A DNA stretch of 64,000 bases from a candidate division WOR-3 bacterium (GTDB taxonomy: Bacteria > Hydrothermota > Tepidihabitantia > SM23-42 > CAYGYG01): the NCBI GenBank assembly GCA_965648915.1, contig CBFGIV010000007.1:132-64131 (forward strand), in the 5' to 3' direction. Both the position numbers and the translations under genes were made by a program. This document shows, piece by piece, positions 27,838 to 29,260 of this stretch. Under the pieces are notes generated by a model. It was not told where the DNA came from. It saw only the letters and a program-made list of their open reading frames with translations, and did no database searches. Within the stretch, counting starts at the first letter, position 1. Every line of letters begins with the position of its first letter.

Positions 27838-27879
27838 GATTTTATCAGAACTCAGAAAACAGAAGACAGAAGGTAGTAT

Positions 27880-28275
27880 TCATATCTTAGAATAAGTTTG
27901 CCAGTTATTCATAAGAGAATAAAGCATAGCGTTAACTCTATCATATTTATCATCCAATCTTTTATAAGTACTTTCGTCCATGTATTTACAATCAAGTGCG
28001 AAATCCAACCAACCTCTCGTCTCTTCGCTTGAACCCAGAGCATCATTGAGATGTCGGATGAATATTTGTTCGTATTTTCTCTTAGCAAATCCTTCTCGTA
28101 CATTAATAGGAACCGACCTTGATGATCGTCTAATTTGGTCAATTAGCGAGTATTTTTCTTCAGGAGGAAACAATTTTGATATTTCAAATATTTCCATTGC
28201 CAGTTCATAAGATAATTGATACACTCTCAAATCCTTAATCGACCTAACAGATCGCCTCATTCTATCCTCTGTCAT
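27880..28275 (-). CDS. four helix bundle protein inserted between cas1 and cas2
   Basis: DLRVYQ, FPPEEKYSLIDQIRRSSRSV..NVREGF, GSSEET. Confidence 0.9.
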   Translation of the reverse strand: MTEDRMRRSVRSIKDLRVYQLSYELAMEIFEISKLFPPEEKYSLIDQIRRSSRSVPINVREGFAKRKYEQIFIRHLNDALGSSEETRGWLDFALDCKYMDESTYKRLDDKYDRVNAMLYSLMNNWQTYSKI

Positions 28276-28288
28276 CTGTCCTCTGTCT

Positions 28289-29260
28289 TCAGTCCTCGAT
28301 CAATCTGTTCGCTATGGCATGGCATTCAAACTGAATAATATCCGTCCTTTTAATATTTCTGCCGCAATACCGGATTGATTCGTTCATAAATGCAGTAAAA
28401 TTTTCAATCAGCATTGCCTTGCCTTCTTTATTTAAACTATAACCGTTTTCCAGTTTGTCAAAATGCTCCTGTTTAACCTTTCTTCCAGCAAAGAGATTTA
28501 CCACGGTCTCATCAGCCCAGATGCGAAAATTTTCTATTATATCAAAAACCAGAGATTTTTTATTATAATTGTCGGTATGAATAATGCCAACATAAGGATC
28601 AAGCCCGGCAATGATACAGGCCTTTTCCACTTTTGAATACAAAATTCCGTATGCGTAATTCAAAAGTGCGTTAAATTCATCCTTAGCTGGATTTCTGCTT
28701 CGGCCATCAAATCTATATCTATCTGGCATTAAAAAACTCAAGCATTCAAAATAGACCCTTCCCCCACTACCTTCAATCCCCATAATCGTGCCCCGTTTTT
28801 CTTCAATGGTGCCGGAAAGATTATCAAGTGATTCTCGGCAATTCTCTAATCTTTCAATATAAGCAGTAATTTCAGCAGACTTCTGGGTGCGTGTGGTACG
28901 AAGTCTCTTTAAGAATTCAATCTGATTTTCAAATTTCCTTATCACCCAGGAAAGGGCAAGTTTTAGTCCTTCCTCATTTTCGGCGATCTCAATCTGCCTT
29001 CTTCTTATCAGTGTTGTGCTGCCAATCCGGCTATGCCAGACCTGTCCATAAGGCTCTCCAAACTCATCAAGAAAGATAATATCAATATTATTCTCCATTG
29101 CCATCTTTATCGCATCGGTCGTAATATATGCAGCCGTGGTAATCAAAATTGAAGAGACCTTTTTGACAGAAATTTCAAAAACCTGGTCATCCCGTTTAAC
29201 CTTAAAACAATCACCTTCCTTGCAAAGATAAGAGCCATAACTATTTATGACTAACTGCAT
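28289..29260 (-). CDS. cas1: CRISPR-associated endonuclease Cas1
   Basis: MGIEG, NALLNYAYG, GLDPYVGIIH, LVFDIIENFR. Confidence 0.96.
   Translation of the reverse strand: MQLVINSYGSYLCKEGDCFKVKRDDQVFEISVKKVSSILITTAAYITTDAIKMAMENNIDIIFLDEFGEPYGQVWHSRIGSTTLIRRRQIEIAENEEGLKLALSWVIRKFENQIEFLKRLRTTRTQKSAEITAYIERLENCRESLDNLSGTIEEKRGTIMGIEGSGGRVYFECLSFLMPDRYRFDGRSRNPAKDEFNALLNYAYGILYSKVEKACIIAGLDPYVGIIHTDNYNKKSLVFDIIENFRIWADETVVNLFAGRKVKQEHFDKLENGYSLNKEGKAMLIENFTAFMNESIRYCGRNIKRTDIIQFECHAIANRLIED

Follow-up and report, generated by a model that had tools for sequence, protein, structure and literature searches.

Introduction

Proteins of PF05635/TIGR02436 form a very large family of unknown function and are usually annotated as odd 'ribosomal' or 'intervening sequence' proteins; to our knowledge no mobility enzyme is known for any member. 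In this work we describe two genes of this family, each lying between complementary repeat arrays, in the clustered regularly interspaced short palindromic repeats (CRISPR)-Cas locus of a candidate division WOR-3 bacterium, within a stretch of 64,000 nucleotides (nt) of contig CBFGIV010000007.1 (assembly GCA_965648915.1) that we call the window. We consider it rather likely that positions 27838-28297, between cas1 and cas2, are a mobile cassette of the intervening-sequence type, a passenger of the CRISPR locus that is looped out and probably processed in RNA. The closest described systems are the intervening sequences of 23S ribosomal RNA (rRNA), of which examples bearing an open reading frame (ORF) are given in the available part of PMC4990558 for Coxiella burnetii (helix 45), Leptospira, Brucella and Xanthomonas. 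The C. burnetii sequence is described there as a selfish element of 428 nt, the 5' part of which holds an AGAAGA stretch, three copies of GACAGAT and one of GACAGAA before the start of the S23p ORF, in a copy number that varies between strains. Its terminal stem is a near-perfect 28 base pairs (bp) that RNase III cuts in vitro, its S23p ORF is described as decaying and probably untranslated, and the Xanthomonas S23p structure is reported as a homopentameric toroid (PMC4990558).

Other published work touches on the family or on repeats of this kind. The accessible text of PMC10053308 relates the family to Avd of diversity-generating retroelements, and the legend of Fig. 6B of PMC10910872 lists '23S rRNA IVP' among new associations of CRISPR adaptation modules. 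Intergenic direct repeats of the heptamer TAACTGA are described, in the available part of PMC4679880, from Beggiatoaceae, cyanobacteria and some Bacteroidetes, with one inverted set among 170. A literature search that did not cover subscription journals returned no description of genes of this family between inverted repeat arrays outside rRNA.

The cassette between cas1 and cas2

Profile searches of the ORFs identify a type I-B CRISPR-Cas locus in the window, on the minus strand throughout, with the minus-strand order cas3, cas3-HD, cas8b, cas7, cas5, cas6b, a DUF6922/AbiEii pair, cas1, a small gene, cas2, cas4, the CRISPR array and a second small gene. The first small gene, the arrays that form its arms (together the first cassette) and the adjoining cas genes are:

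28289..29260, minus strand: cas1 (PF01867, 278.7 bits), with its last two codons and stop (GAG GAC TGA) within the 5' arm
28261..28297, minus strand: 5' arm of the first cassette, five GA-N-GACA heptamers (GAGGACT GAAGACA GAGGACA GATGACA GAGGATA)
27880..28260, minus strand: four-helix-bundle gene (TIGR02436/PF05635, 126 amino acids), ATG at 28260, TGA at 27880-27882
27844..27873, minus strand: 3' arm of the first cassette, four TTCTG-NN heptamers, reverse complement of the 5' arm
27547..27837, minus strand: cas2 (PF09827, 90 bits), ATG at 27837

Read along the minus strand, the end of cas1 passes into the heptamers GAGGACT to GAGGATA, which are followed by GA and the ATG at 28260; the stop codon of cas1 (28289-28291) lies inside the first two of them. 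Beyond the TGA of the small gene come ATACTACC, the heptamers TTCTGTC TTCTGTT TTCTGAG TTCTGAT, and AAAATC, the last heptamer ending 6 nt from the start of cas2, and the distance between cas1 and cas2 amounts to 451 nt. The 5' arm can also be read as heptamers of the form GACAGAT (one) and GACAGAG (two). We took the ATG at 28260 as the start of the gene; an alternative in-frame ATG at 28275 lies within the 5' array, and the true start is ambiguous. A first-pass annotation of this DNA had pointed to an array at 28297-28261 that overlaps the cas1 stop and to an inverse, TTCTG-type array at 27873-27844. Both are borne out by reading of the sequence, by Tandem Repeats Finder (28261-28297, period 14, 2.6 copies; 28268-28287, period 7, 2.9 copies; 27853-27872, period 7, 2.9 copies) and by an inverted-repeat search (arms 27848-27879 and 28259-28290, 32 nt, 75% complementary, with a 16-nt core at 88%).

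A search for sequencing runs that contain the locus gave none of RNA and four of DNA, all from one hot-spring study. Contigs of these four runs span both junctions of the filled site (X1, 27782-28067 and 28051-28477; X4, 27751-28140; X3, 28165-28411), and as these contigs may include the source sample they argue only against misassembly. No empty-site joint was present in the contigs of the four runs over the cas1-cas2 junctions; one joint of 27716 to 29045 was discarded, being found in a single contig with a side of 24 nt and a depth of 3.55.

The likeness to 23S rRNA intervening sequences that the first-pass annotation had suggested proves closer than it had claimed, in that the C. burnetii element, as described in the available part of PMC4990558, likewise has an S23p/PF05635 ORF in the loop of complementary termini and GACAGA-type heptamers upstream of it. 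The heptamer GACAGAT itself is shared (GACAGAT/GACAGAG in the window, GACAGAT/GACAGAA in Coxiella), a likeness that concerns the repeat unit. Like the window cassette, rRNA intervening sequences are, by the same partial source, horizontally acquired, sporadic and without an encoded mobility enzyme. They differ in their hosts, which in the window are a cas1-cas2 coding operon and a CRISPR array, and in their termini, the arms of the window being heptamer arrays with mismatched spacers in place of the near-perfect 28-bp stem described for Coxiella. A search of Rfam over window positions 24000-38000 returned CRISPR repeats only, and no 23S rRNA; nor was rRNA found around the 20 closest metagenome relatives.

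An insertion relative to the closest cas1-cas2 loci

Within a comparison set of 49 genomes of the order, three others possess a close Cas1 (93%, 86% and 80% identity), and the four-helix-bundle gene is absent from the cas1-cas2 loci of all three. In G007 (Cas1 86% identical) the gap between cas1 and cas2 is 6 nt, and in G013 (80%) the two genes overlap by 14 nt. Because two of the three closest loci are empty in this way, against 451 nt in the window, the window cassette is an insertion relative to its close relatives; these are the clean empty sites that the first-pass annotation had recommended looking for. In G017, which has the closest Cas1 (93%), a spacer of 85 nt, unrelated in appearance and without the gene, separates cas1 and cas2. 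The end of cas1 reads AAGGAGTGA in G007 and GAGGACTGA, followed by the array, in the window; in G017 (locus L009, G017:C397, 981-1080) it reads AAGGAGACAGAATGA, one GACAGAA unit beyond G007, and the spacer itself opens with GACAGAA. The 85-nt spacer could be the remnant of a cassette or the seed of one.

Arms in most sampled members of the family

Each of the seven family members in this genome possesses inverted periodic arms, seven different units being used (GGGTCAGAG, GAGGACA, AATTGGTTT, GATATGA, AAATGCCT, ATGGTTT and GAGTAGC), and the five copies other than the two of the CRISPR locus lie in non-CRISPR operons. A profile search found family members in 48 of the order's 49 genomes, 322 matches in total. 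For a survey of the order we combined the seven own copies with 80 regions from the top of the 322 matches by profile score, a non-random sample of 96 genes in all. For each gene the upstream flank (130 nt) was aligned with the reverse complement of the downstream flank (120 nt), and 2000 random sites in the window's genome, sampled with this geometry, served as control; local alignment was used for this survey because duplex prediction on flanks of 130 x 120 nt is noisy (control mean -43 kcal/mol). Eighty of the 96 genes lie above the 95th percentile of the control, 65 above the 99th and 25 above the control maximum. Counted by genomic context, 30 to 33 of 42 groups pass the 99th percentile, counts that are approximate since tandem neighbouring cassettes partly merge the groups. 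Among relatives from other phyla, searched with an alignment of eight closer family sequences, 57 of 76 usable loci exceed the 99th percentile, as do 45 of 73 usable metagenome loci, in both cases against a control drawn from the window's own genome, which is of other composition. Inverted periodic flanks of the kind that the first-pass annotation proposed to search for around these genes are thus carried by most of the members sampled.

The position of the arms relative to neighbouring genes is also regular. In 57 of 63 cassettes with significant arms (median arm length 38 nt) the ORF upstream is encoded on the strand of the cassette, and the 5' arm starts a median of 3 nt past its stop, which it overlaps in 23 cases; in 56 the ORF downstream is likewise on that strand and starts a median of 28 nt beyond the 3' arm. 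As the arms in this survey border on the stop of the preceding gene and the start of the following one, the cassette takes the place of an intercistronic junction, and at the base of the predicted stem the former stop and start would come to adjoin. Coding operons are not the only hosts: eight of the 80 order loci (L040, L043, L044, L046, L050, L057, L064 and L067) lie between two transfer RNA (tRNA) genes. The cassettes flanked by tRNA genes (Gln/Ser or Ser/Ser), namely these eight and L121, have arms of the GGCTTAT type, and in L040 another GGCTTAT-type array is found past the downstream tRNA. Taken with the CRISPR array described below, these contexts suggest an intervening-sequence-type element that lives outside rRNA, in ordinary operons, tRNA clusters and CRISPR arrays.

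A conserved protein

The protein of the first cassette matches PF05635 with 116.4 bits (cut-off 33.8) over profile positions 1-105 of 106, and TIGR02436 with 105.1 bits (cut-off 24) over positions 1-108 of 109. In an alignment of 36 family members its residues E56 and E80 are invariant and S49 and Y93 are at least 90% conserved; the two glutamates correspond to the acidic core of the family, the first being the E of the N-I-A-E-G stretch and the second lying about 24 residues further on. Relatives by sequence in the PDB are 2gsc (E 5e-10) and 2rld (E 1e-9), each deposited with five chains, and we propose that the product is a ring-forming four-helix-bundle protein of the S23p/TIGR02436 family. 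The median ratio of nonsynonymous to synonymous substitution rates (dN/dS) across 31 orthologous pairs within the order is 0.13, with every pair below 0.5, a level of constraint that points to purifying selection on a functional cassette protein. In this the proteins of the order differ from the Coxiella ORF, which is described as decaying in the available text of PMC4990558.

An alternative raised by relatedness to Avd, which the accessible part of PMC10053308 states for the family, is that the gene serves a diversity-generating retroelement as an Avd-type accessory. Avd (PF22296) is likewise a small four-helix bundle, the wider family is pentameric, and the protein of the first cassette does give a weak match to the bAvd profile (PF22296, E 6e-4), which at 20.7 bits is under the cut-off of 40. 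However, a search of the genome (94.6% complete) for a reverse transcriptase (RVT_1) gave no match, none is present among the 16 neighbouring ORFs, and unlike Avd systems the window has no reverse transcriptase and no template or variable repeats. A retroelement role is ruled out because the genome lacks a reverse transcriptase, and we give it next to no credence.

A second cassette in the CRISPR array

The first-pass annotation had further described another four-helix-bundle gene of the same design with a different repeat unit, and this holds for the second small gene of the locus, at the trailer end of the CRISPR array and co-oriented with its transcription (minus strand):

25955..26726, minus strand: CRISPR array, ten repeats matching CRISPR-DR7 and one degenerate terminal repeat
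25900..25940, minus strand: 5' arm of the second cassette, GGGTCARAG-type units, directly after the degenerate last CRISPR repeat (25955-25991)
25509..25874, minus strand: second four-helix-bundle gene, 121 amino acids (PF05635, 121.8 bits; TIGR02436, 112.9 bits)
25468..25504, minus strand: 3' arm of the second cassette, GACTC/GACCC units; beyond it a CRISPR repeat truncated at its 5' end (25444-25462), then a decayed 5' arm copy (about 25412-25443)

The arms of this cassette are predicted to form a duplex of -37.1 kcal/mol, with none of 500 shuffles as good. In order there come a repeat that is degenerate but full, the cassette, a repeat of which the last 19 nt are present and the decayed copy of the 5' arm, and the direct repeat of about 85 nt around the cassette is composed of CRISPR repeat and duplicated arm, as expected from repeat-mediated duplication within the array. 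Genome G005 of the order offers a similar case, in which two cassettes that are 100% identical lie 877 nt apart inside a CRISPR array with a different repeat (L024, G005:C4:73402-75390). Each is flanked by a full repeat and a repeat without its first 13 nt, the same layout as in the second cassette of the window, and in both arrays the cassettes point along the transcription of CRISPR RNA.

The position of the first gene between cas1 and cas2, the presence of two cassettes in this single locus and that of two identical ones within another CRISPR array could be taken to mean that the CRISPR adaptation module employs the gene as a functional accessory, a reading to which the mention of '23S rRNA IVP' in the legend of Fig. 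6B of PMC10910872, the part of that source used here, lends some support. Against it, none of the three closest cas1-cas2 loci carries the gene, the other five copies of this genome reside in non-CRISPR operons, and the nearest relatives of the protein occur in unrelated contexts. Relatives of the Cas1, Cas2, Cas4 and Cas6b of the window were found by tblastn in none of 160 order and cross-phylum loci and in none of 80 metagenome loci, a search that could miss distant cas genes, and since none of these 240 other loci holds relatives of the window Cas proteins the CRISPR context is incidental in this sample. We therefore hold an adaptation role to be very improbable: the cassette is a horizontally spread passenger and not a CRISPR component. 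The association listed in PMC10910872 places the same protein family beside cas1/cas2, and as far as that legend goes our data point to passenger insertion instead of function.

Co-inheritance of gene and arms, and spread across phyla

The closest relatives of the protein of the first cassette come from metagenome-assembled genomes labelled Deltaproteobacteria (72% identity), Methanophagales archaeon (68%) and Cloacimonadota (67%), labels that may be wrong, and from metagenome contigs (up to 76%), whereas the best relative within the order is 58% identical. This distribution, with the closest relatives outside the order, argues for horizontal spread. The locus labelled Methanophagales archaeon (L093, JAFNKG010000050.1) encodes a 68% identical protein and has CAGAA-type heptamer arms; if the binning is right, it would represent a cross-domain transfer.

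Arms move together with the gene across phyla. Protein pairs at least 80% identical mostly share both flanks and thus occupy orthologous positions, at which the unit is kept while the copy number of the array varies. Locus L074, on the other hand, has 81-91% protein identity to L066, L082 and L047 and the same GAAGATATGAAG unit without common flanks, the similarity of the DNA stopping inside the arms. Between cassettes in different contexts, the share of pairs with a common 6-mer in their arms is 5% at protein identities below 35%, 10% at 35-50%, 16% at 50-60%, 51% at 60-70% and 75% at 70% or more. Similarly, when 241 cassettes were searched for a CAGA heptad in the upstream flank and for its complement in the downstream one, both were present in 13 of 18 cassettes whose protein is at least 70% identical to that of the window, 16 of 30 at 60-70%, 3 of 87 at 50-60%, 2 of 41 at 40-50% and none of 64 below 40%. 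These comparisons indicate that the repeat unit tracks the protein clade.

Arms built from the target sequence were also considered, an idea hinted at by the end of cas1 (GAGGACTGA in the window, AAGGAGTGA in G007) and by the direct repeat of about 85 nt. This was rejected, since a given protein clade keeps its unit in different phyla and since the direct repeat is a CRISPR repeat plus a duplicated arm.

Predicted pairing of the arms and a proposed model for the cassette

For the arms of the first cassette, taken alone, the predicted energy of the RNA duplex is -37.2 kcal/mol; when the 3' arm is shuffled 500 times the mean is -18.2 kcal/mol (standard deviation 3.8), and no shuffle is as good. 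The same arms on the antisense strand reach -29.8 kcal/mol. In the predicted minimum-free-energy fold of the entire 481-nt cassette RNA the long-range stem of the arms is the closing element, with pairing on the 3' side covering about 27838-27879, and inverted-repeat search, folding and duplex energy agree in placing the ORF in a predicted loop closed by complementary termini, as in the ORF-bearing intervening sequences. Across the family, the sense duplex is more stable than the antisense in 28 context groups and less so in 13 (Wilcoxon p 0.0036), compared with 256 and 239 in the random control.

These predictions suggest how an intervening-sequence-type cassette might persist in an operon. 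The first cassette was inserted in the orientation of the operon, exactly where the stop of cas1 meets the start of cas2. Within the polycistronic transcript its arms would pair as an imperfect stem of about 34 bp, which would loop the gene out and set the stop of cas1 beside the start of cas2. By analogy with rRNA intervening sequences, including the one that bears GACAGAT, host RNase III, for which a gene is present in the window's genome, may then cut the stem, and such cutting would free the RNA of the cassette and leave cas1 and cas2 on separate pieces of the message; an uncut stem may instead keep the two genes translationally linked. The same design would permit life in other transcripts, including ones that are already processed, such as the CRISPR arrays of the window and G005, tRNA clusters and 23S rRNA.

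Several results weigh against this model. Nearly a third of the sampled family genes of the order (31 of 96) do not rise above the 99th percentile of the control, and the control applied to the cross-phylum and metagenome loci, as noted, has another composition. The fold of the whole cassette gives z-scores of just -1.4 for the first cassette and -0.8 for the second. Counts of G-U against A-C mismatches show no strand preference by group (16 against 17 groups, with totals of 146 and 112 in the 65 significant cassettes), so that selection at the RNA level is weakly supported. The arms are 5-bp cores broken by mismatched spacers of 2-3 nt, and because the published Coxiella stem is by contrast a near-perfect 28 bp, cutting by RNase III is not to be assumed here. 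Finally, the conservation of clade-specific cores suggests a constraint on sequence beyond pairing, which a stem leaves unexplained.

This last point leads to a different explanation, in which the arrays are primarily binding sites, in RNA or DNA, of the cassette's own pentameric protein, with one unit per subunit, serving autoregulation or the control of transcripts that bear the unit, and the complementarity of the arms is secondary. The arms are made of conserved 5-nt cores and free spacers of 2-3 nt; the spacers are often unpaired and the paired cores invariant. Each protein clade has its own unit, which it keeps in different phyla and unrelated contexts; purifying selection acts on the protein, and arrays of the same unit families occur elsewhere in this genome. 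The arms of the window hold five and four units and the median arm is 38 nt, while the solved relatives have five chains and the Xanthomonas protein is a homopentameric toroid in the available text of PMC4990558. Nevertheless, co-inheritance of gene and arms accounts for the correlation of unit and clade without any binding, and many of the arrays that lack a gene lie within the coding sequence of paralogous secretion tails and may be one inherited family. We regard binding of this kind as a rather unlikely primary role; it is compatible with the looped-out cassette that we favour and could be a layer added to it. A broader version, which we offer as speculation and think improbable, is that the heptamer arrays form an address code in which each pentamer clade would read its own 5-nt core at a spacing of 7-9 nt, cassettes and gene-less arrays of the same unit families, which in this genome are found in 5' leaders and within the regions coding for type IX secretion tails, together forming a genome-wide post-transcriptional network of which rRNA intervening sequences would be a special case.

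Alternatively, the arms may act in DNA, as a hairpin or cruciform that is recognised by a host or trans-acting recombinase, or through template switching, to move or delete the cassette, with the RNA stem as a by-product. Cassettes are indeed gained and lost as blocks with the arms moving together with the gene, the copies differ in the sequence of their arms and share a structure, as do sites recognised by shape, and the copy number of arrays varies between orthologues. Yet with DNA parameters the duplex of the first cassette is much weaker (-16.8 kcal/mol), and profile searches of neighbouring ORFs found no recombinase near the cassette. There is no general target-site duplication: direct repeats pass the 99th percentile in 15 of 96 genes, in which CRISPR repeats, tRNA ends or tandem cassettes account for them. 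Furthermore, the co-orientation with the host operon (57 and 56 of 63) is not required by a mechanism confined to DNA, though selection could yield it. An action of the arms in DNA therefore seems to us decidedly improbable, and the looped-out passenger remains the reading that we prefer.

Relation to other repeats and elements

The TAACTGA arrays resemble those described here in being short tandem repeats of 7 nt, mostly just upstream of start codons, with many copies per genome and a scattered distribution, whereas the arrays of the window are complementary pairs around one gene family; the available text of PMC4679880 contains neither 'intervening' nor 'S23' nor 'four helix'. Elements resembling miniature inverted-repeat transposable elements (MITE), repetitive extragenic palindromes (REP) or mycobacterial interspersed repetitive units (MIRU) are likewise compact, without transposase and intercistronic with little polarity. 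Unlike these, the window element includes a gene for a conserved protein, has ends that vary from copy to copy within one genome and is accompanied by no consistent target duplication; seven copies with seven different units, and direct repeats beyond the control only where context explains them, do not fit a transposon or MITE.

In general, these findings imply that genes of PF05635/TIGR02436 are normally packaged between complementary, clade-specific arrays and inserted precisely between cistrons, by which a 30-year-old curiosity of rRNA genes becomes a general class of compact, horizontally spread cassette, for which a link to the as yet unexplained heptamer repeats of bacterial genomes can be tested. 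For the association of the family with CRISPR adaptation genes, as published in the legend of PMC10910872, passenger insertion is the simpler reading. Annotators who meet a further small gene between cas1 and cas2 should check its flanks for arms before calling it a new Cas component.

Other repeat arrays and neighbouring genes

Octamer arrays of one unit family bracket cas genes in the window (27518-27548, 30278-30297 and 36513-36544). Read on the coding strand, the array 50 nt upstream of cas3 is (CAACTC-NN)x4, the complement (GAGTT-NNN)x4 lies exactly between the stop of cas2 and the start of cas4, and a third copy is placed at the end of cas6b; in G007 and G013 cas2 and cas4 overlap, without an octamer array. 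The pair 30278/36513 exceeds the 99.9th percentile of random array pairs, with 508 pairs tested, and the cargo between octamer arrays would be 6-9 kb of cas genes with no four-helix-bundle gene. Genome-wide, inverted pairing of the arrays found by Tandem Repeats Finder yields only two pairs above the 99.9th percentile of random array pairs, few standing out because unit families recur across the genome; by single-linkage clustering 121 of 166 arrays fall into one group.

Arrays of short period (6-12, with 2.5 copies or more) number 307 in this genome, and their units belong to a limited number of families that recur; examples are L252 (G000:C36:2400-8300), L253 and L254. Among the 56 best arrays 29 lie inside ORFs, many at 84-94% of the length of the ORF, and all five array-bearing proteins tested have a Por_Secre_tail (type IX secretion) domain at the array, with arrays of both 7 and 8 nt read as protein. 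One such ORF-internal array, of the CTTCTGAC type, belongs to the complement family of the window's arm. A composite of (GGGTC-NGA)n and (AAGAT-RG)n, with up to 14 copies, occurs at five places (C36:7867-8000, C4:61633-61831, C46:17352-17513, C53:391-481 and C58:7330-7477), and its first unit, GGGTC-NGA, is also the unit of the arm of the second cassette. At the three places mapped to ORFs (C36, C4 and C46) the composite lies 78-200 nt upstream of a large gene, that of C36 having a type IX secretion tail.

Between cas6b and cas1, window positions 29306-30201 hold the DUF6922 and AbiEii (type IV toxin-antitoxin) gene pair, in the place of which G007 and G013 each have a single ORF of 112-113 amino acids.

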